Positions 1-16,246 of a stretch of DNA of 16,246 nucleotides are shown one piece after another. How positions within the stretch are numbered: the first letter of the stretch is position 1; each line of letters opens with the position of its first letter. Made by a program: the position numbers and the translations under genes. The notes under the pieces are model-generated. The model was not told the DNA's origin. It saw only the letters and a program-made list of their open reading frames with translations, and searched no databases. Source of the stretch: Naegleria gruberi (Eukaryota); NCBI GenBank assembly GCA_000004985.1, contig GG738971.1. One strand, given 5' to 3'.

Positions 1-804
1 ATTTTTGAGTTTAAAGTTATTAAGGTGCTTAACTTGTGAAATGTTAACACATTTGCCTATTTTCATCAAATGTTTCTTTCAATACTGTTGGTGGTCAATG
101 CCCATAGGGTAAAGAAAGATTCCCACAGTTTCTTTTTGGTATTGCTAGCATGGCAGAATCAAAATTAGAAATAAATTCTTTGAATTGTTGTCGAGTGATT
201 GTGGAAAATATATTCCAAATAATTTGATTATAAATTTATAAATTGGCGATCCAAAGACATGATTTTATTCGATTCCAATAATTTAATAATGATTATTTAT
301 GTGGTTGGAGATTTGAAAATTAACTTGGGAAAAGATAATTTCATAATAACGATCCAACCAATTAGCTTCCAGGATGAAAATTAACATGATATCATGTTGA
401 GATGATGATAATGAACATTGGAGATAATTTCAAAAAGTGAAATCAACAATATTTGTTAATTCCAATTAGGTTGAACATGTTCTCGGAAGGAGTTCTTCTT
501 CTTTTCCGTTGCTCATCATCACTGATAGGTTTGTTTTAATTTCATCTTCATCAATTGTTCAATTCCAATTCTCTGTTCAACTATTACTTCAGTGATGATA
601 AGAAACTTGAACCTCCTGAAAACACTTTCAACTTGTCAACACCATCCTCCAATGAACCTTTTTCAAACCTTATAGTGCTATTGTGCACGAATCTTTATTG
701 GAAACAAAGACTAAACATGGAATTTTCAACGTTCGTAATGCACAACAACAAAAGGTTCGAAAGTTTGTGTTGATGGAGAACACCACTTCAACAATTCAAA
801 AAAT

Positions 805-1120
805 ATGCAACAACAACATTCTTTGAAAGTTTCCATAATAAAATGTACTGACCTGCCTAAAGTTGACTTGTTGGGATCATGTGATGCGTATGTGCAGGTG
901 TGGGTTGCTCACTCAGATCCAAACAAATTTAAACAAGCACAGACTGATAATGAGGAGGGAATTAAACAGACAAGAGTGATTACTAGTTTAAATCCAGAAT
1001 TTAATGAACAATTTCAATTCAAATTTCCTCAAGTCAATTCTGGTATGGAGAAGAAAGATCCAATGGATAAATATTTGGTTGTGAGAGTGGTGGATAAGAA
1101 TGCCATATTGAAGGATGAAG
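805..1120 (+). CDS. Exon 1 of a gene encoding a protein with an N-terminal C2 domain. The start codon is at 805, and the exon ends in phase 1 immediately before a GT donor.
   Basis: The ATG at 805 sits in an A-rich context. The translation MQQQHSLKVSIIKCTDLPKVDLLGSCDAYVQVWV...TRVITSLNPEFNEQFQFKF...KYLVVRVVDKNAILKDE matches the C2-domain consensus (L.V.V..A..L...D..G.SDPYV.V ... T.v.....P.wNE.F.F ... L...V.D.d). A GT follows at 1121. Confidence 0.7.
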
Positions 1121-1172
1121 GTTCGTTTAAATTTATATATATTGGAAAGTATTGATTGACTTGTTTCTCAAG
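1121..1172 (+). other. A 52-nt spliceosomal intron (GTTCGT...TTGTTTCTCAAG) within the C2-domain gene.
   Basis: GT/AG boundaries with a pyrimidine-rich 3' end. Removing it joins ...AILKDE to VIGFVMIQFFGLNLKVGKPLRRTYPLIDAKSGSIELCFEAVP in frame, restoring the conserved C2 DE.IG / G.I.L.L.F.P strands. Unspliced, the frame hits a stop at 1153. Confidence 0.65.
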
Positions 1173-1299
1173 TTATTGGATTTGTAATGATACAATTTTT
1201 TGGATTGAATTTAAAGGTGGGAAAACCATTGAGAAGAACCTACCCATTAATTGATGCCAAATCTGGAAGTATTGAATTGTGTTTTGAAGCAGTTCCAAG
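1173..1299 (+). CDS. Exon 2 (partial) of the C2-domain gene. It runs into the N-masked block, so the 3' end is not visible.
   Basis: The open frame continues from the splice junction to the edge of the N run. The encoded strand matches the C-terminal beta-strands of a C2 domain. Confidence 0.65.
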
Positions 1300-4200
1300 N
1301 NNNNNNNNNNNNNNNNNNNNNNNNNNNNNNNNNNNNNNNNNNNNNNNNNNNNNNNNNNNNNNNNNNNNNNNNNNNNNNNNNNNNNNNNNNNNNNNNNNNN
1401 NNNNNNNNNNNNNNNNNNNNNNNNNNNNNNNNNNNNNNNNNNNNNNNNNNNNNNNNNNNNNNNNNNNNNNNNNNNNNNNNNNNNNNNNNNNNNNNNNNNN
1501 NNNNNNNNNNNNNNNNNNNNNNNNNNNNNNNNNNNNNNNNNNNNNNNNNNNNNNNNNNNNNNNNNNNNNNNNNNNNNNNNNNNNNNNNNNNNNNNNNNNN
1601 NNNNNNNNNNNNNNNNNNNNNNNNNNNNNNNNNNNNNNNNNNNNNNNNNNNNNNNNNNNNNNNNNNNNNNNNNNNNNNNNNNNNNNNNNNNNNNNNNNNN
1701 NNNNNNNNNNNNNNNNNNNNNNNNNNNNNNNNNNNNNNNNNNNNNNNNNNNNNNNNNNNNNNNNNNNNNNNNNNNNNNNNNNNNNNNNNNNNNNNNNNNN
1801 NNNNNNNNNNNNNNNNNNNNNNNNNNNNNNNNNNNNNNNNNNNNNNNNNNNNNNNNNNNNNNNNNNNNNNNNNNNNNNNNNNNNNNNNNNNNNNNNNNNN
1901 NNNNNNNNNNNNNNNNNNNNNNNNNNNNNNNNNNNNNNNNNNNNNNNNNNNNNNNNNNNNNNNNNNNNNNNNNNNNNNNNNNNNNNNNNNNNNNNNNNNN
2001 NNNNNNNNNNNNNNNNNNNNNNNNNNNNNNNNNNNNNNNNNNNNNNNNNNNNNNNNNNNNNNNNNNNNNNNNNNNNNNNNNNNNNNNNNNNNNNNNNNNN
2101 NNNNNNNNNNNNNNNNNNNNNNNNNNNNNNNNNNNNNNNNNNNNNNNNNNNNNNNNNNNNNNNNNNNNNNNNNNNNNNNNNNNNNNNNNNNNNNNNNNNN
2201 NNNNNNNNNNNNNNNNNNNNNNNNNNNNNNNNNNNNNNNNNNNNNNNNNNNNNNNNNNNNNNNNNNNNNNNNNNNNNNNNNNNNNNNNNNNNNNNNNNNN
2301 NNNNNNNNNNNNNNNNNNNNNNNNNNNNNNNNNNNNNNNNNNNNNNNNNNNNNNNNNNNNNNNNNNNNNNNNNNNNNNNNNNNNNNNNNNNNNNNNNNNN
2401 NNNNNNNNNNNNNNNNNNNNNNNNNNNNNNNNNNNNNNNNNNNNNNNNNNNNNNNNNNNNNNNNNNNNNNNNNNNNNNNNNNNNNNNNNNNNNNNNNNNN
2501 NNNNNNNNNNNNNNNNNNNNNNNNNNNNNNNNNNNNNNNNNNNNNNNNNNNNNNNNNNNNNNNNNNNNNNNNNNNNNNNNNNNNNNNNNNNNNNNNNNNN
2601 NNNNNNNNNNNNNNNNNNNNNNNNNNNNNNNNNNNNNNNNNNNNNNNNNNNNNNNNNNNNNNNNNNNNNNNNNNNNNNNNNNNNNNNNNNNNNNNNNNNN
2701 NNNNNNNNNNNNNNNNNNNNNNNNNNNNNNNNNNNNNNNNNNNNNNNNNNNNNNNNNNNNNNNNNNNNNNNNNNNNNNNNNNNNNNNNNNNNNNNNNNNN
2801 NNNNNNNNNNNNNNNNNNNNNNNNNNNNNNNNNNNNNNNNNNNNNNNNNNNNNNNNNNNNNNNNNNNNNNNNNNNNNNNNNNNNNNNNNNNNNNNNNNNN
2901 NNNNNNNNNNNNNNNNNNNNNNNNNNNNNNNNNNNNNNNNNNNNNNNNNNNNNNNNNNNNNNNNNNNNNNNNNNNNNNNNNNNNNNNNNNNNNNNNNNNN
3001 NNNNNNNNNNNNNNNNNNNNNNNNNNNNNNNNNNNNNNNNNNNNNNNNNNNNNNNNNNNNNNNNNNNNNNNNNNNNNNNNNNNNNNNNNNNNNNNNNNNN
3101 NNNNNNNNNNNNNNNNNNNNNNNNNNNNNNNNNNNNNNNNNNNNNNNNNNNNNNNNNNNNNNNNNNNNNNNNNNNNNNNNNNNNNNNNNNNNNNNNNNNN
3201 NNNNNNNNNNNNNNNNNNNNNNNNNNNNNNNNNNNNNNNNNNNNNNNNNNNNNNNNNNNNNNNNNNNNNNNNNNNNNNNNNNNNNNNNNNNNNNNNNNNN
3301 NNNNNNNNNNNNNNNNNNNNNNNNNNNNNNNNNNNNNNNNNNNNNNNNNNNNNNNNNNNNNNNNNNNNNNNNNNNNNNNNNNNNNNNNNNNNNNNNNNNN
3401 NNNNNNNNNNNNNNNNNNNNNNNNNNNNNNNNNNNNNNNNNNNNNNNNNNNNNNNNNNNNNNNNNNNNNNNNNNNNNNNNNNNNNNNNNNNNNNNNNNNN
3501 NNNNNNNNNNNNNNNNNNNNNNNNNNNNNNNNNNNNNNNNNNNNNNNNNNNNNNNNNNNNNNNNNNNNNNNNNNNNNNNNNNNNNNNNNNNNNNNNNNNN
3601 NNNNNNNNNNNNNNNNNNNNNNNNNNNNNNNNNNNNNNNNNNNNNNNNNNNNNNNNNNNNNNNNNNNNNNNNNNNNNNNNNNNNNNNNNNNNNNNNNNNN
3701 NNNNNNNNNNNNNNNNNNNNNNNNNNNNNNNNNNNNNNNNNNNNNNNNNNNNNNNNNNNNNNNNNNNNNNNNNNNNNNNNNNNNNNNNNNNNNNNNNNNN
3801 NNNNNNNNNNNNNNNNNNNNNNNNNNNNNNNNNNNNNNNNNNNNNNNNNNNNNNNNNNNNNNNNNNNNNNNNNNNNNNNNNNNNNNNNNNNNNNNNNNNN
3901 NNNNNNNNNNNNNNNNNNNNNNNNNNNNNNNNNNNNNNNNNNNNNNNNNNNNNNNNNNNNNNNNNNNNNNNNNNNNNNNNNNNNNNNNNNNNNNNNNNNN
4001 NNNNNNNNNNNNNNNNNNNNNNNNNNNNNNNNNNNNNNNNNNNNNNNNNNNNNNNNNNNNNNNNNNNNNNNNNNNNNNNNNNNNNNNNNNNNNNNNNNNN
4101 NNNNNNNNNNNNNNNNNNNNNNNNNNNNNNNNNNNNNNNNNNNNNNNNNNNNNNNNNNNNNNNNNNNNNNNNNNNNNNNNNNNNNNNNNNNNNNNNNNNN

Positions 4201-6460
4201 NNNNNNNNNNNNNNNNNNNNNNNNNNNNNNNNNNNNNNNNNNNNNNNNNNNNNNNNNNNNNNNNNNNNNNNNNNNNNNNNNNNNNNNNNNNNNNNNNNNN
4301 NNNNNNNNNNNNNNNNNNNNNNNNNNNNNNNNNNNNNNNNNNNNNNNNNNNNNNNNNNNNNNNNNNNNNNNNNNNNNNNNNNNNNNNNNNNNNNNNNNNN
4401 NNNNNNNNNNNNNNNNNNNNNNNNNNNNNNNNNNNNNNNNNNNNNNNNNNNNNNNNNNNNNNNNNNNNNNNNNNNNNNNNNNNNNNNNNNNNNNNNNNNN
4501 NNNNNNNNNNNNNNNNNNNNNNNNNNNNNNNNNNNNNNNNNNNNNNNNNNNNNNNNNNNNNNNNNNNNNNNNNNNNNNNNNNNNNNNNNNNNNNNNNNNN
4601 NNNNNNNNNNNNNNNNNNNNNNNNNNNNNNNNNNNNNNNNNNNNNNNNNNNNNNNNNNNNNNNNNNNNNNNNNNNNNNNNNNNNNNNNNNNNNNNNNNNN
4701 NNNNNNNNNNNNNNNNNNNNNNNNNNNNNNNNNNNNNNNNNNNNNNNNNNNNNNNNNNNNNNNNNNNNNNNNNNNNNNNNNNNNNNNNNNNNNNNNNNNN
4801 NNNNNNNNNNNNNNNNNNNNNNNNNNNNNNNNNNNNNNNNNNNNNNNNNNNNNNNNNNNNNNNNNNNNNNNNNNNNNNNNNNNNNNNNNNNNNNNNNNNN
4901 NNNNNNNNNNNNNNNNNNNNNNNNNNNNNNNNNNNNNNNNNNNNNNNNNNNNNNNNNNNNNNNNNNNNNNNNNNNNNNNNNNNNNNNNNNNNNNNNNNNN
5001 NNNNNNNNNNNNNNNNNNNNNNNNNNNNNNNNNNNNNNNNNNNNNNNNNNNNNNNNNNNNNNNNNNNNNNNNNNNNNNNNNNNNNNNNNNNNNNNNNNNN
5101 NNNNNNNNNNNNNNNNNNNNNNNNNNNNNNNNNNNNNNNNNNNNNNNNNNNNNNNNNNNNNNNNNNNNNNNNNNNNNNNNNNNNNNNNNNNNNNNNNNNN
5201 NNNNNNNNNNNNNNNNNNNNNNNNNNNNNNNNNNNNNNNNNNNNNNNNNNNNNNNNNNNNNNNNNNNNNNNNNNNNNNNNNNNNNNNNNNNNNNNNNNNN
5301 NNNNNNNNNNNNNNNNNNNNNNNNNNNNNNNNNNNNNNNNNNNNNNNNNNNNNNNNNNNNNNNNNNNNNNNNNNNNNNNNNNNNNNNNNNNNNNNNNNNN
5401 NNNNNNNNNNNNNNNNNNNNNNNNNNNNNNNNNNNNNNNNNNNNNNNNNNNNNNNNNNNNNNNNNNNNNNNNNNNNNNNNNNNNNNNNNNNNNNNNNNNN
5501 NNNNNNNNNNNNNNNNNNNNNNNNNNNNNNNNNNNNNNNNNNNNNNNNNNNNNNNNNNNNNNNNNNNNNNNNNNNNNNNNNNNNNNNNNNNNNNNNNNNN
5601 NNNNNNNNNNNNNNNNNNNNNNNNNNNNNNNNNNNNNNNNNNNNNNNNNNNNNNNNNNNNNNNNNNNNNNNNNNNNNNNNNNNNNNNNNNNNNNNNNNNN
5701 NNNNNNNNNNNNNNNNNNNNNNNNNNNNNNNNNNNNNNNNNNNNNNNNNNNNNNNNNNNNNNNNNNNNNNNNNNNNNNNNNNNNNNNNNNNNNNNNNNNN
5801 NNNNNNNNNNNNNNNNNNNNNNNNNNNNNNNNNNNNNNNNNNNNNNNNNNNNNNNNNNNNNNNNNNNNNNNNNNNNNNNNNNNNNNNNNNNNNNNNNNNN
5901 NNNNNNNNNNNNNNNNNNNNNNNNNNNNNNNNNNNNNNNNNNNNNNNNNNNNNNNNNNNNNNNNNNNNNNNNNNNNNNNNNNNNNNNNNNNNNNNNNNNN
6001 NNNNNNNNNNNNNNNNNNNNNNNNNNNNNNNNNNNNNNNNNNNNNNNNNNNNNNNNNNNNNNNNNNNNNNNNNNNNNNNNNNNNNNNNNNNNNNNNNNNN
6101 NNNNNNNNNNNNNNNNNNNNNNNNNNNNNNNNNNNNNNNNNNNNNNNNNNNNNNNNNNNNNNNNNNNNNNNNNNNNNNNNNNNNNNNNNNNNNNNNNNNN
6201 NNNNNNNNNNNNNNNNNNNNNNNNNNNNNNNNNNNNNNNNNNNNNNNNNNNNNNNNNNNNNNNNNNNNNNNNNNNNNNNNNNNNNNNNNNNNNNNNNNNN
6301 NNNNNNNNNNNNNNNNNNNNNNNNNNNNNNNNNNNNNNNNNNNNNNNNNNNNNNNNNNNNNNNNNNNNNNNNNNNNNNNNNNNNNNNNNNNNNNNNNNNN
6401 NNNNNNNNNNNNNNNNNNNNNNNNNNNNNNNNNNNNNNNNNNNNNNNNNNNNNNNNNNNN
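1300..6460. other. N-masked block or assembly gap of 5161 nt. Nothing can be inferred here. The giant X-filled ORFs in the track are artefacts.
   Basis: A contiguous run of n characters. Confidence 1.
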
Positions 6461-8452
6461 ATTGTTCAAGTTATAATAATGTTTATTGGTCTGTTAGTTT
6501 ATTGCAAATGAGGGAAGATTCTGAAATTCATGGAAATATTTTGGCCACAGAAGTGACAGCTTCGAATTCAAAAATTTATGGAACTCTGATTATACCAGAT
6601 TCGGCAACGATGGTAACTATATTCGAAACTACTCAGTTCATGAATTTTACTAATTGGGATCCTTATTCACCATTTGTTGATTCGAAATGTATTTCTTCTC
6701 AATCAGTAGTTTCGTCTAATGTTTCTTCCAATTCGACTGTGGTTACAAACAGTTCAGTTTCAGTCAATCAAACTATTATTAATTCCAACTCGTCAATGAT
6801 TAAGAACAATACTGTTTACAATAGTACAGTATTAAATAATTCCACATTGAATAATTATTCATCAATAGTTAACACTACTCAAGTTTCTAATAATATTACA
6901 GTTGGTAATTCAACAACTTTATCAAATTCTACAAACGTATTGAATAATTCCTCAATGAGTGGTAATTCGACCTTTTCCAATTCTACTAATTATGGAAATG
7001 GCTCACTTTCGAATACAACACAAGTGGTTTCTAATAATGTTACAGTTGGTAATTCAACAACTTTATCAAATTCTACAAAAGTAATGAATAATTCCTCAAT
7101 GAATGGTAATTCAACATTTTCCAATTCTACTAATTATGGAAATGGCTCACTTTCGAATACAACACAGGTAGTTTCTAATAATAATACAGTTGGTAATTCT
7201 TCAAATTTATCAAATACTACGATTGTACTGAATAATTCCTCAATGGAAAGTAATTCTTCACAAACAATTTCCAATTCCACTGTTGCCAATACTACAAATA
7301 TTCACGGAAATGACTCACTGTCGAATACAACGCAAAATGTTGCTAATAATAATACACTAGGAAATTCCACACAATTACTGAATATTTCAATGAACAGCAA
7401 TAGTACAAGCAATTATTCCAGTATTACCAACTCTACTAATTATGGAAATGAATCATTTGTGAATTCAACAAATAATTCAGTGAACAGCACTACTAATTCT
7501 ACTTTTATGGGAAATAGTTCAAATATTTCACAACAAGTGAATACAACCACAAATTCATCAATTGGAGTTGTTGATAACGAAACGACTATTCTTATGAATG
7601 AAACAAATGTTTCGAATAATAGCATTGTTGAAACTAATCAAACTCTGAATAATTCACAAATTGTTAACGAAACATCAACAGAATCCAATAATAATGGAAC
7701 AATTCAAAACAACTCTTCCCAAACTATTATTTCCAATAATTCATCCATTGTTAACGAAACTTCCAATACTTCTAATACTACAGAACTAATTTCTAATAAC
7801 ACAATAAGTGATTCAAATAACACATTTATCAATCAGTCAACTGTGGAACATCAAAATTCAACACTTAATCAAACTCTAATTAACAATCAAACTACTTTTG
7901 GAAATAGTTCAGTAATTGAAGTTCAAAACCAGGTCAATCAAACATCAAATATCTCTAACAGCACAAACAACACTTTAATTATTAATTCAACAATTATTTC
8001 TAACAATACAATTTCCAATTATAGTAATTCAGTATTACCAAGTAATGTCACAAATAATTCGACATTATCAATCAATAATACAATTCTAAATAATCAAAGC
8101 ACTGTAAATTCAACAACATCTAACCTGAATAATGAAACATTCAATAATCAGAATTCCAGTTTAAATAATTGTGACAGACATGTCAATTGCTCAAATCATG
8201 GCGATTGTAATTCAGAAGGACAATGCATATGTTCTTCAAATTATGAAGAAGGTTTCTGGTCTGGAACTAAGTGTGAATTTTGTGCGATTAACTTTTATGG
8301 AAAATTATGTAATACTAAAATTGTTGGTCCAGCTTTGATTTCACCAGATTTTACAGGCGTTACATTTATATTACATTCTGCACAGATGAATGATTCAATT
8401 CCTTGTGAAAAGATTATCAATCCACTTGATTTATCTATTTTTGGAAGTAAGC
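6461..8452 (+). CDS. Internal fragment, open at both ends into masked sequence, of a secreted or surface glycoprotein. It is Asn/Ser/Thr-rich and hyper-sequon-dense, with tandem repeats and a C-terminal EGF-like module.
   Basis: A 664-codon open frame without stops from the mask edge at 6461 to the mask edge at 8452. The track's start at 6502 is a TTG; the first ATG is at 6508 and there is no signal peptide, so the real 5' end is probably upstream in the masked region. There are dozens of N-x-S/T sequons (NST, NSS, NTT, NIS, NVT, NQT, NET and others), repeated about 48-aa units, and an 8-Cys module CDRHVNCSNHGDCNSEGQCICSSNYEEGFWSGTKCEFCAINFYGKLC. Confidence 0.75.
6883..7338 (+). repeat. Coding tandem repeat of three nearly identical 144-bp (48-aa) units starting at 6883, 7027 and 7171. 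More degenerate copies lie upstream (about 6790) and downstream (7339 to about 7510).
   Basis: Units 1 and 2 differ at about 8 of 144 nt. Unit 3 is about 80% identical. The encoded unit is VSNN[IVN]TVGNSTTLSNSTNVLNNSSM[SN]GNSTFSNSTNYGNGSLSNTTQV. Confidence 0.85.
8170..8310 (+). other. EGF-like module with eight cysteines (laminin/tenascin-type spacing) at the C-terminal end of the visible glycoprotein fragment.
   Basis: The cysteine pattern C-x5-C-x5-C-x5-C-x-C-x13-C-x2-C-x8-C, with the conserved G and aromatic positions (HGDC, GQCIC, GFWSG, YG..C). Confidence 0.7.
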
Positions 8453-11400
8453 NNNNNNNNNNNNNNNNNNNNNNNNNNNNNNNNNNNNNNNNNNNNNNNN
8501 NNNNNNNNNNNNNNNNNNNNNNNNNNNNNNNNNNNNNNNNNNNNNNNNNNNNNNNNNNNNNNNNNNNNNNNNNNNNNNNNNNNNNNNNNNNNNNNNNNNN
8601 NNNNNNNNNNNNNNNNNNNNNNNNNNNNNNNNNNNNNNNNNNNNNNNNNNNNNNNNNNNNNNNNNNNNNNNNNNNNNNNNNNNNNNNNNNNNNNNNNNNN
8701 NNNNNNNNNNNNNNNNNNNNNNNNNNNNNNNNNNNNNNNNNNNNNNNNNNNNNNNNNNNNNNNNNNNNNNNNNNNNNNNNNNNNNNNNNNNNNNNNNNNN
8801 NNNNNNNNNNNNNNNNNNNNNNNNNNNNNNNNNNNNNNNNNNNNNNNNNNNNNNNNNNNNNNNNNNNNNNNNNNNNNNNNNNNNNNNNNNNNNNNNNNNN
8901 NNNNNNNNNNNNNNNNNNNNNNNNNNNNNNNNNNNNNNNNNNNNNNNNNNNNNNNNNNNNNNNNNNNNNNNNNNNNNNNNNNNNNNNNNNNNNNNNNNNN
9001 NNNNNNNNNNNNNNNNNNNNNNNNNNNNNNNNNNNNNNNNNNNNNNNNNNNNNNNNNNNNNNNNNNNNNNNNNNNNNNNNNNNNNNNNNNNNNNNNNNNN
9101 NNNNNNNNNNNNNNNNNNNNNNNNNNNNNNNNNNNNNNNNNNNNNNNNNNNNNNNNNNNNNNNNNNNNNNNNNNNNNNNNNNNNNNNNNNNNNNNNNNNN
9201 NNNNNNNNNNNNNNNNNNNNNNNNNNNNNNNNNNNNNNNNNNNNNNNNNNNNNNNNNNNNNNNNNNNNNNNNNNNNNNNNNNNNNNNNNNNNNNNNNNNN
9301 NNNNNNNNNNNNNNNNNNNNNNNNNNNNNNNNNNNNNNNNNNNNNNNNNNNNNNNNNNNNNNNNNNNNNNNNNNNNNNNNNNNNNNNNNNNNNNNNNNNN
9401 NNNNNNNNNNNNNNNNNNNNNNNNNNNNNNNNNNNNNNNNNNNNNNNNNNNNNNNNNNNNNNNNNNNNNNNNNNNNNNNNNNNNNNNNNNNNNNNNNNNN
9501 NNNNNNNNNNNNNNNNNNNNNNNNNNNNNNNNNNNNNNNNNNNNNNNNNNNNNNNNNNNNNNNNNNNNNNNNNNNNNNNNNNNNNNNNNNNNNNNNNNNN
9601 NNNNNNNNNNNNNNNNNNNNNNNNNNNNNNNNNNNNNNNNNNNNNNNNNNNNNNNNNNNNNNNNNNNNNNNNNNNNNNNNNNNNNNNNNNNNNNNNNNNN
9701 NNNNNNNNNNNNNNNNNNNNNNNNNNNNNNNNNNNNNNNNNNNNNNNNNNNNNNNNNNNNNNNNNNNNNNNNNNNNNNNNNNNNNNNNNNNNNNNNNNNN
9801 NNNNNNNNNNNNNNNNNNNNNNNNNNNNNNNNNNNNNNNNNNNNNNNNNNNNNNNNNNNNNNNNNNNNNNNNNNNNNNNNNNNNNNNNNNNNNNNNNNNN
9901 NNNNNNNNNNNNNNNNNNNNNNNNNNNNNNNNNNNNNNNNNNNNNNNNNNNNNNNNNNNNNNNNNNNNNNNNNNNNNNNNNNNNNNNNNNNNNNNNNNNN
10001 NNNNNNNNNNNNNNNNNNNNNNNNNNNNNNNNNNNNNNNNNNNNNNNNNNNNNNNNNNNNNNNNNNNNNNNNNNNNNNNNNNNNNNNNNNNNNNNNNNNN
10101 NNNNNNNNNNNNNNNNNNNNNNNNNNNNNNNNNNNNNNNNNNNNNNNNNNNNNNNNNNNNNNNNNNNNNNNNNNNNNNNNNNNNNNNNNNNNNNNNNNNN
10201 NNNNNNNNNNNNNNNNNNNNNNNNNNNNNNNNNNNNNNNNNNNNNNNNNNNNNNNNNNNNNNNNNNNNNNNNNNNNNNNNNNNNNNNNNNNNNNNNNNNN
10301 NNNNNNNNNNNNNNNNNNNNNNNNNNNNNNNNNNNNNNNNNNNNNNNNNNNNNNNNNNNNNNNNNNNNNNNNNNNNNNNNNNNNNNNNNNNNNNNNNNNN
10401 NNNNNNNNNNNNNNNNNNNNNNNNNNNNNNNNNNNNNNNNNNNNNNNNNNNNNNNNNNNNNNNNNNNNNNNNNNNNNNNNNNNNNNNNNNNNNNNNNNNN
10501 NNNNNNNNNNNNNNNNNNNNNNNNNNNNNNNNNNNNNNNNNNNNNNNNNNNNNNNNNNNNNNNNNNNNNNNNNNNNNNNNNNNNNNNNNNNNNNNNNNNN
10601 NNNNNNNNNNNNNNNNNNNNNNNNNNNNNNNNNNNNNNNNNNNNNNNNNNNNNNNNNNNNNNNNNNNNNNNNNNNNNNNNNNNNNNNNNNNNNNNNNNNN
10701 NNNNNNNNNNNNNNNNNNNNNNNNNNNNNNNNNNNNNNNNNNNNNNNNNNNNNNNNNNNNNNNNNNNNNNNNNNNNNNNNNNNNNNNNNNNNNNNNNNNN
10801 NNNNNNNNNNNNNNNNNNNNNNNNNNNNNNNNNNNNNNNNNNNNNNNNNNNNNNNNNNNNNNNNNNNNNNNNNNNNNNNNNNNNNNNNNNNNNNNNNNNN
10901 NNNNNNNNNNNNNNNNNNNNNNNNNNNNNNNNNNNNNNNNNNNNNNNNNNNNNNNNNNNNNNNNNNNNNNNNNNNNNNNNNNNNNNNNNNNNNNNNNNNN
11001 NNNNNNNNNNNNNNNNNNNNNNNNNNNNNNNNNNNNNNNNNNNNNNNNNNNNNNNNNNNNNNNNNNNNNNNNNNNNNNNNNNNNNNNNNNNNNNNNNNNN
11101 NNNNNNNNNNNNNNNNNNNNNNNNNNNNNNNNNNNNNNNNNNNNNNNNNNNNNNNNNNNNNNNNNNNNNNNNNNNNNNNNNNNNNNNNNNNNNNNNNNNN
11201 NNNNNNNNNNNNNNNNNNNNNNNNNNNNNNNNNNNNNNNNNNNNNNNNNNNNNNNNNNNNNNNNNNNNNNNNNNNNNNNNNNNNNNNNNNNNNNNNNNNN
11301 NNNNNNNNNNNNNNNNNNNNNNNNNNNNNNNNNNNNNNNNNNNNNNNNNNNNNNNNNNNNNNNNNNNNNNNNNNNNNNNNNNNNNNNNNNNNNNNNNNNN

Positions 11401-11876
11401 NNNNNNNNNNNNNNNNNNNNNNNNNNNNNNNNNNNNNNNNNNNNNNNNNNNNNNNNNNNNNNNNNNNNNNNNNNNNNNNNNNNNNNNNNNNNNNNNNNNN
11501 NNNNNNNNNNNNNNNNNNNNNNNNNNNNNNNNNNNNNNNNNNNNNNNNNNNNNNNNNNNNNNNNNNNNNNNNNNNNNNNNNNNNNNNNNNNNNNNNNNNN
11601 NNNNNNNNNNNNNNNNNNNNNNNNNNNNNNNNNNNNNNNNNNNNNNNNNNNNNNNNNNNNNNNNNNNNNNNNNNNNNNNNNNNNNNNNNNNNNNNNNNNN
11701 NNNNNNNNNNNNNNNNNNNNNNNNNNNNNNNNNNNNNNNNNNNNNNNNNNNNNNNNNNNNNNNNNNNNNNNNNNNNNNNNNNNNNNNNNNNNNNNNNNNN
11801 NNNNNNNNNNNNNNNNNNNNNNNNNNNNNNNNNNNNNNNNNNNNNNNNNNNNNNNNNNNNNNNNNNNNNNNNNNNN
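8453..11876. other. N-masked block or assembly gap of 3424 nt. It hides the 3' part of the glycoprotein gene and the 3' two-thirds of the NirK gene.
   Basis: A contiguous run of n characters. Confidence 1.
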
Positions 11877-12623
11877 ATACGAATGTTCCATTAATTTTGG
11901 ATCATCATCTGATGGTTCACAATAGAATTCACTTTGCATGACATAGAATTCCTTATCTACTTTTGGTAATCCCTCTTCTGGCTCAACTAACATTAATCCA
12001 TACATGCCATTACTTATGTGTGAAGGAACTGGACCTGCAGCACAGTGATAGATAAATAAACCTGAAGTTAATAATTTGAAAAATCCTGTTTTTTCTTCAT
12101 CTTTTTCAGCCAATAACATTTCTGCACCTCCTCCTGGTCCTGTCACACAGTGAAAATCAATATTGTGAGCCATACCGGTTTCGTCCAAGTTTAGGTAATT
12201 GACTTGCATGACATCTCCAACTCTTGCTCTGATAAATGGTCCAGGAACTGTTCCATTAAATGTCCAATATGGATACTTGTACTGTTTGCTGATTGGTTTC
12301 ACTTCAATTGTGGTATCTAGATTAACAACTAATTGAACTGGATAATCACGGTCAATTGGTGGAGGAATTCCAGGAGCTTTTGTTAAAATTGCTTCAACAA
12401 CTGGCAACTCCAAATTTAATTCAGGAGCTTTCTTGAATTTCTTCATCATATTTTCAGGAAACAAACTATGTTTCTTTTGTGTTTCTTGTGCTTCAAGTAA
12501 ACTATCACATTGGTATTTGTAGTATTGATAAACACCTGTTCCAACAGCACAGGTTAGACCTAGGGATAATGCAATGTCAAAAGTCTTTGGTTTGACAGTT
12601 CTTAGTCTGTGGAACAGTTTCAT
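11877..12623 (-). CDS. nirK: Copper-containing nitrite reductase (NirK, NO-forming). This is the 5' portion only: the N-terminal targeting/anchor extension plus cupredoxin domain I. Domain II lies in masked sequence.
   Basis: The ATG is at 12623-12621 on the minus strand. The translation contains the diagnostic NirK motifs WTFNGTVPGP, HNIDFH (T1Cu His and T2Cu His), YHCAAGPVPSHISNGMYG (His-Cys, His at +9 and Met at +5, which are the T2/T1 ligands) and KEFYVMQSEFY. These align with bacterial NirK (TFNGSVPGP / HNIDFHAATGALGGGA / [24 protein letters not shown] / KIYYVGEQDFY). The first roughly 90 aa (MKLFHRLRTVKPK + hydrophobic FDIALSLGLTCAVGTGVY...) have no bacterial counterpart. Confidence 0.9.
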
Positions 12624-12717
12624 TAGTGTTGTATTGTTATTTTTTAATTGAAATGTTGAATAAGACTTTTTTTATGATTCTTTGAATTTCCATTTGTCCT
12701 CAAACATAATCCCATTA

Positions 12718-12785
12718 CTGTGGTTACGCAATGAAGTGCAAGCAATTCTACAATGAAATGCAAGCAATTATTTTTTGAACTGCAA
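12718..12785. repeat. Left terminal inverted repeat (68 bp). It contains TGCAAGCAATT subrepeats at 12737-12747 and 12759-12769, and a degenerate third copy at 12781-12791.
   Basis: Its reverse complement equals 15859-15926 at 68 of 68 positions, checked base by base. Confidence 0.9.
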
Positions 12786-12959
12786 CGAATAATTTAATGA
12801 ATTGAAAGTTTCTTGAACCACAATTCTTAAAATAGATCAAAGAGAAGTCACACTGTAAGATCAAGCTGTAGTTCTGCTTGTTTCGAATATTGATAATGAA
12901 TTTGTTTATTATATAAGATATTTTGTATTGTTATTAAGATGATTGATCACTCTTCATGT

Positions 12960-15722
12960 TCATTGAATTTTCTTTCCGAAAATTGAATCCTCCCATGACT
13001 CATTAAATAATTCATCTAATTCTTCGTCATAATCGCCAAGCTCAATTTTAGAGCTCTTCTTGGGTTCAGATTGAAAACCTTCTGATTCCGAAAGTGGGCT
13101 TTGTGGTTCAAATTCTACTACATGTAAATGTTGCAATCTAGCAACAAGTATAGCTCTGTAATTTGAAATAGAAAATGGTTTGGTCATAATATCGACGGCA
13201 TCAGATAGTGAAAATCCTGCTGAAAGAAAATCCATTAGTAATACACAATAATCACCACAATGATTTCCATCCACTTGAATTTTTTTTTGTAATGTTTTTC
13301 GAACAGTCTTTGGTTTTACAATAAATGATGGCAACATTTCAAATAATTCACTAGTCTCTGATTCTATCACTGAAAAATCCTTAGCGAAAGAATCAAAAAG
13401 AAACCAATCAGTGGATTGACAATCATAGATTAGTAAGTACCAGTGTAATGATCTTGCCACAGGAAAAATTATAAATCCTTTTGATGTAAATTTCATACTC
13501 TTTGGTAAGTTTGTTTCTATGAATTTTTTGGATTGGTTAGTAACTCTTTGAGAGAAATCAGACGGTATGTATTGTAAATATTGTGAGCTGATTTTGGAAA
13601 AACAAATTCCAAATATATCAAAAGTATTTCCAGGTAAGAATACAGTGTCATCTTTGATAGTCTCCAATGCCTCAGTAGATAAAGTGATTGAACAAGCAAT
13701 TGTTTCTGTTGAAAGAACGTACAATTGTAGATTGGCAGCATTTTGTTGGATGTTATAGTTAAATTCTGTTTTGTTTTGTATGTGAAGTATTATTTTAGAT
13801 ATTTGTTCTACCTGTTTTTGGTCAAAATTTTCTTTCATGGAATCACTATCAATCCAAGGATTGTTTACATCATCTAAGATGGGATCTTGATCTAATTTCT
13901 CATCTGTCTCTACCTTAACTGATGGTGTAGGTAGTTCTACATAGAATTGACCAATACACATAGGATTAAATTCTCTGATATATAAATCATACAAATCATT
14001 ATTCATTTTCAGTGAAGCTCTGACATACTTCAAGTATTCCTCTTCTGAATCATAATTCCAAATATCCATTAAACATTTTCTAAAACTGTTTACAATCACA
14101 TCTGGATTCATGTTAGAAATAATCTGCTCAAATGCTGCATTTCTTGATTTTCTATCAGAATTAGAATTATTCTTTTTCCAATCAGCTAATTCTCTTTTTG
14201 CATATCTGAAACACATATTATCCAATGGTGATTGATGGTGCCCACCTACAGGAAGTAAAATGTTAATTCTATTATGTTGTTTCAAAATCTTTTGAACTGA
14301 TTTACACTTATGATGAGAGAGATTATCCCATAATAAAATGTCTCCTTCTTTTGAATTAGGAATATAAACTTTTTCAACCCATTGCTCAATATGTTCAATA
14401 TGAACACCAGCAATTTTTTCCTCAACAGTTACCTTATTACCATTAATAGTTGATTTCTTTCCTGGCACTGACTCAACAATAGACACTGGTAATACACCTC
14501 CTTCTGCCGTTACAGCAACTAAAAAAGTATCCTTAATATCATCAGCCAATTGTAAAACAACTGCATCATCGTCCTTGATTGGAGTATTTGTTCTTTCCGT
14601 CGCCTTAGTATTTGTTCCAGTTTCATCAAAAACCACAATTTTACTTCTATCAATGGATTTTAAATTTCTAAACATTATTGCTGCATAGAAGCAATAATAA
14701 TAGTAGGTTCTATATAATTGCTCATAAGCTGTTTCAATTCTTTCTCTCTTGGTAATTGTTGTTTTGATCTTCCTTTTATAAAGAAACTTCTTGGAAAATT
14801 TGGAAATATAATCTACTGAAGGTGTTTTCTTTAATCCTGCAACTTCCTTCATTATTTCTCCAAGTCTTATATTACTAACTTGTTTTTTCTCACTCCGTTC
14901 CTTACGAGTAATATCAATAACCTGTAAAATTTGGTCTTTCAATAATAATGGAGGTGGGTGACCACGTTCAACCTTTAATGTTAGTTCATTCCTCTTGCAT
15001 GCCGATAAATATCTGCTAAATTGTGAAGGTGAGATATTATTTTGTTTAGCAAATTCCTGTTGTGATCCACGGTCGGGTGTTGAATATTGTTCTTTATACT
15101 TCTCAACAAGTTTAATTTGTTCTTCTCTTGTTTTTTGAACATAACCAACTTTTCTTTTGTTTTTAAACCCTATCAATACTATTTTATCATCAGGATTTTC
15201 CTTTTTTTCTGTCTCCTCCAGGTTTACCAGTTTTGCTTTCTTTGCTTGACTTTCATTGTATGTTTCTTGATTCCGTTCAACAATTAATAGGGCTTTTTTT
15301 TTGATGTTGTCTTCGAATGACTCATCTCTTTCATCCGTCTCTTCCTCAACAGAAGAACAAATTCTAGTTACCAATTTTGCTACCAGAGCATCTTTTCTAA
15401 GATTACCTCCTGTCTCTCCAAATTCACTCTTCAAAAACTCCTTCAAAAACTTGACATTTTTCATTGTCAATTGATCACGGATTGCCTCTTCCACATTCTC
15501 AAACTTTCGTTTTGTTCCTTTTTTTAGCTTCTTTGGTTTTTCTTCTTTTTTCTTGCCTGGTGTTTTTTCATCTTTCTTTTTACTGGGTGTGTTATCTGGT
15601 TGATCTTGTGTACAGGTCCATGAAGGAACTTGAGATACTGAAGGTAGCAAATCTATTAAATTGCTATAGCTGGAGAAGCTTTGTGGTGAAGTGTCATAGC
15701 TACTCGATTGCTTGTTTGACAT
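12960..15722 (-). CDS. Transposase fused to a Ulp1-like protease. From the N terminus: a basic NLS-like region, CENP-B/pogo-type HTH domains, a DDE_1 catalytic core, and a C-terminal Ulp1/C48 cysteine peptidase domain. It is 920 aa long and ends with a TGA stop.
   Basis: Residues 47-73 are KKKDEKTPGKKKEEKPKKLKKGTKRK. HTH-like segments lie around aa 195-300. The DDE_1 motifs are VVFDETG (D366), ILLWDNLSHH (D466) and QSPLDNMCFRYAK (D501), which gives D-D-35-D spacing and the pogo DNxxH / QPLD signatures. The Ulp1 motifs are SLHWYLLIYD (H760), WFLFDS (D777) and KIQVDGNHCGDYC (Q816, C822), with His-Asp spacing of 17 and Gln-Cys spacing of 6 as in Ulp1. Confidence 0.9.
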   Translation of the reverse strand: MSNKQSSSYDTSPQSFSSYSNLIDLLPSVSQVPSWTCTQDQPDNTPSKKKDEKTPGKKKEEKPKKLKKGTKRKFENVEEAIRDQLTMKNVKFLKEFLKSEFGETGGNLRKDALVAKLVTRICSSVEEETDERDESFEDNIKKKALLIVERNQETYNESQAKKAKLVNLEETEKKENPDDKIVLIGFKNKRKVGYVQKTREEQIKLVEKYKEQYSTPDRGSQQEFAKQNNISPSQFSRYLSACKRNELTLKVERGHPPPLLLKDQILQVIDITRKERSEKKQVSNIRLGEIMKEVAGLKKTPSVDYISKFSKKFLYKRKIKTTITKRERIETAYEQLYRTYYYYCFYAAIMFRNLKSIDRSKIVVFDETGTNTKATERTNTPIKDDDAVVLQLADDIKDTFLVAVTAEGGVLPVSIVESVPGKKSTINGNKVTVEEKIAGVHIEHIEQWVEKVYIPNSKEGDILLWDNLSHHKCKSVQKILKQHNRINILLPVGGHHQSPLDNMCFRYAKRELADWKKNNSNSDRKSRNAAFEQIISNMNPDVIVNSFRKCLMDIWNYDSEEEYLKYVRASLKMNNDLYDLYIREFNPMCIGQFYVELPTPSVKVETDEKLDQDPILDDVNNPWIDSDSMKENFDQKQVEQISKIILHIQNKTEFNYNIQQNAANLQLYVLSTETIACSITLSTEALETIKDDTVFLPGNTFDIFGICFSKISSQYLQYIPSDFSQRVTNQSKKFIETNLPKSMKFTSKGFIIFPVARSLHWYLLIYDCQSTDWFLFDSFAKDFSVIESETSELFEMLPSFIVKPKTVRKTLQKKIQVDGNHCGDYCVLLMDFLSAGFSLSDAVDIMTKPFSISNYRAILVARLQHLHVVEFEPQSPLSESEGFQSEPKKSSKIELGDYDEELDELFNESWEDSIFGKKIQ
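13113..13625 (-). other. Ulp1 / SUMO-protease-like cysteine peptidase domain (C48 family) at the transposase C-terminus.
   Basis: The catalytic His-Asp-(Gln)-Cys arrangement HWYLL...FLFDS...QVDGNHCGDYC has canonical spacing and is followed by an acidic tail. Confidence 0.75.
14088..14690 (-). other. DDE_1 (pogo/Tigger/Fot1-type) catalytic domain of the transposase.
   Basis: The D366 / D466 / D501 triad lies within the characteristic motifs DETG, LLxDNxxxH and LPxxxxxxxSPLD. Confidence 0.8.
14823..15140 (-). other. Helix-turn-helix DNA-binding region of the transposase, of the CENP-B/pogo N-terminal type (two HTH units).
   Basis: Segments QQEFAKQNNISPSQFSRYLSACKR and HPPPLLLKDQILQVIDITRKERSEKKQVSNIRLGEIMKEV resemble psq/HTH_Tnp_Tc5-like helices. 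This is assigned by pattern, not by alignment. Confidence 0.5.
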
Positions 15723-15797
15723 TTTATAAATTTATTGCTTCTTCTGCTGATTGGAAGTTTTGATGTGTGTTTTGCAAGTTTCTTGATCAAAGTGGAA

Positions 15798-15804
15798 ATT
15801 TATA
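15798..15804 (-). promoter_or_regulatory. Candidate TATA box (TATAAAT on the minus strand) about 76-82 nt upstream of the transposase ATG, inside the element.
   Basis: The motif appears on visual inspection in the 136-bp region between the right TIR and the ATG. This region is AT-rich, so specificity is low. Confidence 0.2.
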
Positions 15805-15858
15805 TTTAGACTTTCTTGCAGTTCGTCAGCAAGTAATTGTACTACATTGTAGAATTGC

Positions 15859-15926
15859 TTGCAGTTCAAAAAATAATTGCTTGCATTTCATTGTAGAATT
15901 GCTTGCACTTCATTGCGTAACCACAG
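15859..15926. repeat. Right terminal inverted repeat (68 bp). It contains AATTGCTTGCA subrepeats at 15853-15863, 15875-15885 and 15897-15907, which is 22-bp phasing.
   Basis: It is a perfect reverse complement of 12718-12785. The internal 19-bp CATTGTAGAATTGCTTGCA occurs at 15845-15863 and 15889-15907. Confidence 0.9.
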
Positions 15927-16246
15927 TAGTACAGAGAACGGCTGTTTTTTAAAATATATAAAAAAGGTTCTGAGCGATGGATTATGATTTATTGGATTAT
16001 GAATTGATATTTAGAGTATTTGGATAATTGGATGTTGCTCATTGTTAAGTTCAGTTTAATTTTTGATTAATTTGAATTCAAAAAATTGGCCAAGTCTCCA
16101 GGGAATCGATCTCGTAGGATTCTGGTGTTGTTGGCTTGTTGTTTATTCAATTCAATGACAAACTGTATGGGGTTCACATAAAAAATTCCCAGAGATGGGT
16201 TGAGCTTTGCTTAATTGCTTGTGCATGTAATGAATAGTTACTGAAA

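Follow-up and report, generated by a model that had tools for sequence, protein, structure and literature searches.

Can a transposase of the IS630/Tc1/mariner/pogo (ITm) supergroup carry a Ulp1/SENP-type cysteine peptidase in the same polypeptide, and what would such an enzyme do there? The question is raised by a 16,246-nt stretch of Naegleria gruberi DNA (GenBank:GG738971.1, assembly GCA_000004985.1), called here in its whole length the window, in which an initial annotation made from the letters alone had noticed a pogo-like transposon with a Ulp1-type peptidase fused to its transposase. Our analysis revealed that bp 12716–15928 are occupied by a DNA transposon of the ITm supergroup, of the cut-and-paste type, which is autonomous and structurally intact. 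Taken as a whole, the observations are probably best explained by an intact ITm transposon whose DD34D transposase is fused to a C48 peptidase with the role of a modifier isopeptidase.

A transposase and a C48 peptidase in one open reading frame

The element encodes a single uninterrupted open reading frame (ORF) of 920 amino acids (aa), as had been annotated, and its product is 100% identical to a protein deposited as 'predicted protein [Naegleria gruberi]'. The features recognised along this ORF, among them the previously annotated lysine-rich run, are as follows.

bp 12960–15722, minus strand: 920-aa ORF for the transposase-peptidase, stop codon included; begins with ATG and is not interrupted by a stop
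bp 15504–15581, minus strand: lysine-rich stretch, residues 48–73, a possible nuclear localisation signal; sequence KKKDEKTPGKKKEEKPKKLKKGTKRK
bp 14763–15143, minus strand: two helix-turn-helix (HTH) DNA-binding motifs, residues about 194–320; predicted three-helix units
bp 14043–14660, minus strand: three-aspartate (DDD) catalytic, RNase H-like transposase domain, residues about 355–560; D366 at 14625–14627, D466 at 14325–14327, D501 at 14220–14222
bp 13686–14042, minus strand: helices conserved after the catalytic domain (CLMDIWNY...EYLKYV), followed by an acidic linker predicted with low confidence, residues about 561–679
bp 13128–13685, minus strand: C48 (Ulp1/SENP-type) cysteine peptidase domain, residues about 680–865; H760 at 13443–13445, D777 at 13392–13394, Q816 at 13275–13277, C822 at 13257–13259

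In the transposase half, the three catalytic aspartates lie in the motifs VFDETG (D366), WDNLSHH (D466) and SPLDN (D501). Relatives were collected with phmmer, run exhaustively against 1.84 billion representative proteins, which gave 68 hits; when 51 relatives were aligned, the positions of D366, D466 and D501 proved to be conserved in 82%, 100% and 98%, respectively, and the corresponding motifs read (M)DETG, DNLxxH and SPLDNxxFxxxK. The DNxxH and SPLD motifs of the triad that had been annotated as D-D-35-D are therefore present, but the spacing given for it was off by one, since 34 residues separate D466 from D501 (DD34D by the usual count), with 35 in 46 of 49 relatives. The post-catalytic motif CLMDIWNY...EYLKYV was common to proteins P0002, P0007 and P0010. 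Pfam returned for the whole protein only DDE_3, at 23.4 bits and below the threshold of 28.6, and with the isolated transposase domain the DDE_3 score just reached that threshold (28.7 bits).

The structure was predicted with AlphaFold from a 66-sequence alignment; a single-sequence model, with a predicted local distance difference test score (pLDDT) of 34.6, was set aside. Over residues 194–580 the blockwise mean pLDDT was mostly above 90, with dips to about 50–80, and the model showed a pair of HTH units, each of three helices, and after them an RNase H-like domain, whereas the linker, which is acidic and has no Gly-Gly, was predicted with a pLDDT below 50. Foldseek aligned about 400 columns of the model to full-length Mos1 (E=1.9e-7), and the fold of the transposase matched those of SB, Mos1 and SETMAR. 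On the strength of the conserved DDD motifs, the HTH/RNase H-like model and the Mos1 alignment, membership in the ITm supergroup is secure. It was also noticed by eye that residues about 84–118 (bp about 15369–15473, KFLKEFLKSEFGETGGNLRKDALVAKL) have a SAP-like helix-extended-helix pattern; Pfam gave no SAP match at E≤10 and a SAP motif is not claimed for this protein. One relative had a significant Pfam SAP hit (E=2e-12).

In the peptidase half, the motifs HW (H760), FDS (D777) and HCGD (C822) are present together with Q816. D777 follows H760 by 17 residues and C822 follows Q816 by 6, the spacing of H514, D531, Q574 and C580 in Ulp1. When the isolated C-terminal 280 residues were searched with Pfam, the score for Peptidase_C48 was 19.7 bits (E=8e-4), the threshold being 20.7, whereas a related 377-aa protein, P0020, reached 29.6 bits on its own, above the threshold of the same family (PF02902); the PF02902 match foreseen in the initial annotation was thus obtained at the level of the family but stayed below threshold with the 920-aa protein alone. 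A family profile was built from four C-terminal domains (those of the 920-aa protein, P0002, P0004 and P0020) and searched against solved structures. At E<0.01 it matched clan-CE peptidases only, namely SENP8/NEDP1 (1.2e-6) and XopD (6.9e-5), then ChlaDub2, poxvirus I7L and a Chlamydia-type DUB; SENP7 and Dub1 came just above 0.01, and the matches to poxvirus I7L ranged from E=0.005 to 0.04. In the profile alignment, the HW, (D/S)S and HCGD of the family fell on the catalytic His, Asp-Ser and Cys of SENP8, and the His, Gln and Cys were invariant in the four aligned relatives. The phmmer search of 1.84 billion proteins reached no cellular C48 protein, the domain being highly diverged from cellular Ulp/SENP. 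The C-terminal domain is a predicted clan-CE C48 (Ulp1/SENP-type) peptidase with a complete His/Asp/Gln/Cys set. A C48 domain with its triad had been put forward beforehand as the test of the annotation, and both were found, with the SENP8 match, the score of P0020 and the presence of H760, D777 and C822.

Terminal repeats of the element

The ORF lies between two terminal inverted repeats (TIRs), and the element is laid out as follows.

bp 12716–15928, minus strand: whole transposon including the flanking TA, 3213 bp; bounded by identical 70-nt inverted ends
bp 12716–12717, no strand: TA at the left end, candidate target-site duplication; palindromic
bp 12718–12785, plus strand: left 68-bp TIR, on the 3′ side of the gene; no mismatch to the right TIR
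bp 15859–15926, minus strand: right 68-bp TIR, on the 5′ side of the gene; no mismatch to the left TIR
bp 15927–15928, no strand: TA at the right end, candidate target-site duplication; adjoins the right TIR

Reading inward from bp 12716 and bp 15928, the sequence was the same for 70 nt, consisting of TA and a 68-nt perfect TIR, after which identity dropped abruptly. No mismatch separates the two ends over these 68 nt, in agreement with the annotation; a repeat finder applied to the element ends reported 84 nt at 93%. A 26-nt probe of the terminus matched the window only at the two element ends, with 0 matches expected in shuffled sequences. A TA target-site duplication had also been annotated, and a TA does adjoin the TIR at both ends, but being palindromic it is inseparable from the last two TIR bases without an empty site. 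The GC content of the element is 32.0%, versus 31.3% for the rest of the contig.

Careful examination of the ends revealed an 11-nt motif, TGAANTGCAAG, with five copies in the window, all at the TIRs, where 0.04 were expected. Two are in the left TIR, at bp 12732 and bp 12754, an exact 22-bp interval (span 12732–12764), and three are at the right end (bp 15858–15868, 15880–15890 and 15902–15912), also 22 bp apart, the innermost starting at bp 15858, one base inside the perfect repeat. This 22-bp-spaced layout resembles the multiple transposase-binding sites in ends of the Tc3/Sleeping Beauty type, and the sub-repeats are probably transposase-binding sites as well. Because the two 68-nt TIRs have no mismatch, the ORF is intact and both catalytic sets are complete, it is plausible that the insertion is young and the element recently active.

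Conservation of the fusion in environmental relatives

The same order, transposase followed by C48, was found in four metagenomic loci (L001, L004, L005 and L006) from three further samples, at 23–41% identity. One of them, L001 (ENA metagenome, 3840 bp, encoding P0002), matches residues 194–863 at 36–40% identity. It lacks its 5′ end, and its DDE domain is interrupted by a frameshift of 1 bp; from the second half of the DDE domain through the linker to the end of the C48 domain, however, it is read as one unbroken 461-aa ORF with 38% identity. A frameshift or stop between the two halves in other copies had been named in the initial annotation as the sign of two separate genes; L001 spans the junction of DDE and C48 in one unbroken frame. 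L001 also has three copies of TGAANTGCAAG (bp 2553–2651), beginning about 50 bp 3′ of the ORF stop and in the orientation of the 3′ TIR, where 0.01 were expected. An alignment of the 3′ ends of the window, L001 and L004 was uninformative, and it was a search for short motifs that found TGAANTGCAAG instead.

L004, from the same sample as L001, and L005, from another sample, agree with it in the order of the domains and are marked by an internal deletion and frameshifts. In L006 (JGI 3300002220, bp 1082–3236) a 23%-identical transposase is followed by a C48 ORF that overlaps the transposase stop by 8 nt, and its C48 motifs are canonical (NHYVVAWYD...LFDSL...QHNGIDCG), with the Asp kept. The separate C48 frame of L006 could be due to a frameshift or to an intron that was not recognised, or L006 may truly have two ORFs. 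A different arrangement was seen in L002 (Logan SRR25266747, bp 2713–3846), which encodes the 377-aa P0020; here the N-terminal HTH region is joined directly to C48, with no DDE and no detectable TIRs, and P0020 could be an internal-deletion derivative or a domesticated gene.

Comparison of the C48 domains of L001 and L004 gave a nonsynonymous divergence (pN) of 0.27 and a synonymous divergence (pS) of 0.78, synonymous sites being saturated, and between the window and L001 the ratio of nonsynonymous to synonymous divergence (dN/dS) was about 0.26. Since the nonsynonymous divergence is far below the saturated synonymous divergence, the C48 domain has been kept by selection. As judged from these sequences, the transposase-then-C48 order is an inherited and selected feature of a small lineage, occurring also in environmental protist DNA, and no local accident. 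In a rough neighbour-joining tree, the only supported grouping was a core of the 920-aa element, L001 and L005 (59% bootstrap). Searches by word index found two proteins with the C48 profile and five with the DDE profile, with no named relatives among them, and two metagenome scans and one viral scan yielded no confirmed further locus.

Relationship to pogo

The initial annotation had assigned the transposase to a pogo-like group and foreseen Pfam matches to DDE_1 and to CENP-B/Tc5-type HTH domains. Neither was obtained with the 920-aa protein, for which Pfam gave no DDE_1 at E≤1 and no match to HTH_Tnp_Tc5, CENP-B_N or psq. Of the HTHs described as CENP-B-like, the two units themselves are seen in the model, with no Pfam match to CENP-B_N or HTH_Tnp_Tc5. 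The DDE_1 score of P0002 was 19.6 bits, below the threshold of 22; among the relatives, 55 of 65 matched DDE_1 and 55 of 65 matched DDE_3. The family consensus scored 69 bits with DDE_3 versus 51 bits with DDE_1 and had no match to the mariner Transposase_1. Furthermore, P0064, a canonical pogo protein with full-length DDE_1 and HTH_Tnp_Tc5, and P0063, an IS630-like protein with HTH_23/33 and DDE_3, were equally distant from the query (phmmer E about 4e-4), and a neighbour-joining tree of the hits was uninformative on the placement of pogo.

In favour of the assignment, the third catalytic Asp lies in (S/Q)PLD and is followed by a Lys at +8, which is the pattern of pogo and not of Tc1 or mariner. 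DD35D is typical of Fot, Fot-like and Passer elements, and the DNA-binding motifs known for pogo are CENP-B_N, HTH_Tnp_Tc5, HTH_psq, BrkDBD or HTH_ABP1_N (PMC7386202). The pogo-like reading thus stands as far as the SPLD...K and the DD34/35D triad, both pogo-type, are concerned, whereas the missing DDE_1 match, the preference of the consensus for DDE_3 and the equal distances of P0064 and P0063 speak against it. The element is best described as an ITm transposon with pogo-type catalytic motifs; its membership in pogo is partly supported and not established.

A second deconjugating protease in distant homologues

A distant homologue of the transposase, P0011 (973 aa), was found to carry a C-terminal USP/UCH domain (E=2e-9), and another, P0018, had a weaker UCH match (E=0.0027, below the Pfam threshold). 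One transposase lineage occurs with either of two unrelated deconjugating proteases, C48 or USP/UCH. The contig carrying P0011 (L003, ENA ERZ15610583, bp 1–4762) ends in 81-nt inverted repeats that are 86% complementary and have a sub-repeat of their own, TTCATTTGCAGCAATCAA; it also encodes a 491-aa ORF without Pfam match.

It is conceivable, although we regard it as rather doubtful, that an unnamed deep ITm lineage in heterolobosean and other protists has repeatedly built proteases of ubiquitin-like modifiers into its transposase, C48 being the one used in this element and in L001, L004, L005 and L006, while P0011, and perhaps P0018, have USP/UCH. In that case, removal of SUMO or ubiquitin at transposon ends would be a selected, perhaps required, step of transposition or a counter-defence against SUMO-dependent silencing, and the same solution would have been reached independently by Ginger1 and Mutator elements. 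Ginger1 transposases carry Ulp1 or OTU, which Bao and colleagues read as an involvement of ubiquitin-like pathways in transposition (PMC2836005).

Possible role of the peptidase

By analogy with the family, the HTH region would bind the sub-repeats TGAANTGCAAG that follow one another at 22 bp in the left (two copies) and right (three copies) TIR, the transposase would pair the element ends, and the DDD site would excise the element and reinsert it at TA. It is quite possible, although we hesitate to call it probable, that the C48 domain is an isopeptidase of ubiquitin-like modifiers, SUMO or NEDD8 being the most likely ones. Its link to the transposase would bring it to the transposon ends, where it might strip modifiers from the transposase or from chromatin, silencing or DNA-repair proteins, which in turn could help transposition or the repair of the donor site. 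Deconjugation is preferred to polyprotein cleavage mainly because distant transposase homologues carry the structurally unrelated USP/UCH in the same C-terminal position; an additional argument, against self-processing, is the lack of Gly-Gly in the linker.

Several points weigh against the explanation as a transposon with an isopeptidase function. The Pfam C48 score of the 920-aa protein itself is one bit under the gathering threshold, and the triad Asp (His+17) is replaced by Ser (FSSF) in L001/P0002 (bp about 2140–2150) and L004/P0004. The sequence contains no pointer to the substrate, be it SUMO, NEDD8, ubiquitin or the protein itself, and the rough tree leaves undecided the number of acquisitions, regarding the C48 of L006 and the USP-bearing proteins. 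As for mobility, a protein search by word index of a 5.8-billion-protein database, of a kind in which paralogues would readily show up, found one 90%-identity cluster, on one contig, with no N. gruberi paralogue; only one copy is visible, and all environmental relatives are truncated, deleted or frameshifted.

Some of these points bear on other roles for the domain. We consider it unlikely that C48 is a processing protease that cuts the 920-aa product itself, in the manner of adenovirus adenain, poxvirus I7L or the Ulp1-like proteases of Polintons, for example freeing the transposase from its N-terminal tail or from the C-terminal domain. Viral processing proteases of the same clan are indeed among the profile matches (the I7L structures mentioned above), a long disordered linker lies between the two enzymatic domains, and clan-CE processing proteases cut after sites of the Gly-Gly type, one of which is found at residues 105–106 in the N-terminal tail. 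However, there is no Gly-Gly in the linker of either the 920-aa protein or P0002, the best matches are the cellular deconjugating enzymes SENP8 and XopD, and the domain carried by related transposases is USP/UCH-like, a type known for deconjugation and not for polyprotein processing. It also seems improbable that the domain does not cleave at all and is instead a module for binding SUMO or ubiquitin-like proteins, or for protein interactions, by which the transposase is targeted or regulated. The Asp-to-Ser change in L001 and L004 would fit such a module, as would the strong divergence from cellular Ulp/SENP, with no cellular C48 reached by phmmer; on the other hand, L001 and L004 are damaged copies, the Asp is kept in the 920-aa protein and L006, and His, Gln and Cys do not vary in any of the four aligned relatives.

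Two further alternatives concern the locus and not the enzyme. That it is a host gene, domesticated and no longer mobile, or else a dead relic in a single copy, would accord with the single matching cluster on one contig without N. gruberi paralogue, with the damage in every metagenomic relative, and with P0020, which keeps HTH and C48 without DDE or detectable TIRs. Nevertheless, we judge this very unlikely, because mismatch-free 68-bp TIRs, each adjoined by a TA, and an intact ORF in which no catalytic residue is missing have the look of a young insertion, and perfect TIRs are unexpected in a domesticated gene. The long ORF could also have been a chimera, produced by misassembly or by insertion of a transposon into an unrelated Ulp gene, which a short and gap-rich contig (N runs at bp 1300–6460 and 8453–11876) might invite; this is hardly credible, as both domains lie within one pair of perfect TIRs. 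With the same order found in four other loci from three other samples, once in a single unbroken ORF, a chimeric or misassembled ORF is considered ruled out, and the preferred explanation is the intact transposon with a modifier isopeptidase set out above.

Comparison with known elements

Ulp1-, OTU- and USP-type proteases recur in unrelated mobile elements (Mutator, Ginger1, Crypton, NeSL/Utopia, Helitron and Polinton), and to our knowledge a role for them in transposition has never been shown experimentally. Pogo and Tc1/mariner transposases are usually roughly 350–600 aa. The present element resembles pogo/Fot-like and Tc1/mariner elements in having TA-flanked TIRs and a single transposase in which a bipartite HTH precedes an RNase H-like core, but its product of 920 aa is far longer, the additional length being due to the N-terminal tail and the C48 domain. 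Cellular Ulp1/SENP/NEDP1 proteins have the same catalytic motifs at the same spacing, with SENP8/NEDP1 as the best match among solved structures, whereas the domain of the element is very diverged and is fused to a transposase.

The closest analogue in architecture is Ginger1 of Hydra and other animals, in which a DDE-type transposase and a C-terminal Ulp1 (PF02902) form one protein, and sister elements with OTU instead of Ulp1 mirror the C48/USP alternation described here; however, the transposase of Ginger1 is Gypsy-integrase-like and not ITm, and its host range is different (PMC2836005). Mutator-like elements are likewise DNA transposons with C48/Ulp1 (in Arabidopsis, melon, rice, maize, hydra and lancelet; PMC2836005) but have a transposase of the Mutator superfamily and other TIRs and target-site duplications. 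In oomycete Cryptons and NeSL/Utopia retrotransposons a Ulp1-like peptidase was recruited independently (PMC3212892, PMC4640811); these differ in moving by a tyrosine recombinase or a reverse transcriptase and in having the protease N-terminal or as a separate protein.

The literature searched on Ulp1/C48 together with pogo, mariner or Naegleria reported no ITm element with C48, and the word 'protease' is absent from the main text of two large surveys of pogo and Tc1/mariner elements (one of them PMC7386202). It is therefore plausible that the element represents an undescribed family. Its components are known, as is the idea of such a fusion; what appears to be new is that an ITm transposase takes part in it and that C48 and USP alternate within the lineage. 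The element extends protease-transposase fusions to the ITm supergroup and adds a second case of one transposase lineage alternating between two unrelated deconjugating enzymes. Since it is compact (3.2 kb, one ORF) and intact-looking and belongs to the supergroup for which biochemical and cell-based assays are furthest developed (Mos1, Sleeping Beauty), the element is a convenient place to probe the role of a transposase-tethered SUMO-type protease.

Neighbouring sequences in the contig

The contig is AT-rich, with about 31–32% GC, and more than half of it consists of N runs at bp 1300–6460 (5161 nt) and bp 8453–11876 (3424 nt). Several of the listed ORFs longer than 1000 aa are artefacts translated through N. 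A scan for bacterial promoters and terminators did no better than on shuffled sequences and is irrelevant to a eukaryote.

Next to the transposon, at bp 11877–12623 on the minus strand, is a multicopper-oxidase or copper nitrite reductase-like (NirK-like) gene (Cu-oxidase_3, E=7e-7), the middle of which is hidden by an N run. The left end of the transposon (bp 12716) is 93 bp upstream of the ATG of this oxidase gene, on the same strand, an insertion in its likely promoter region. On the plus strand at bp 6502–8452 there is a long, repetitive Asn/Ser/Thr-rich ORF with an EGF-like cysteine-rich end, running into an N run and probably belonging to a surface glycoprotein-like gene. Further upstream, a 116-aa ORF at bp 805–1155 on the plus strand looks C2-domain-like by eye (LKVSIIKCTDLPKVDLLGSCDAYVQVWV).

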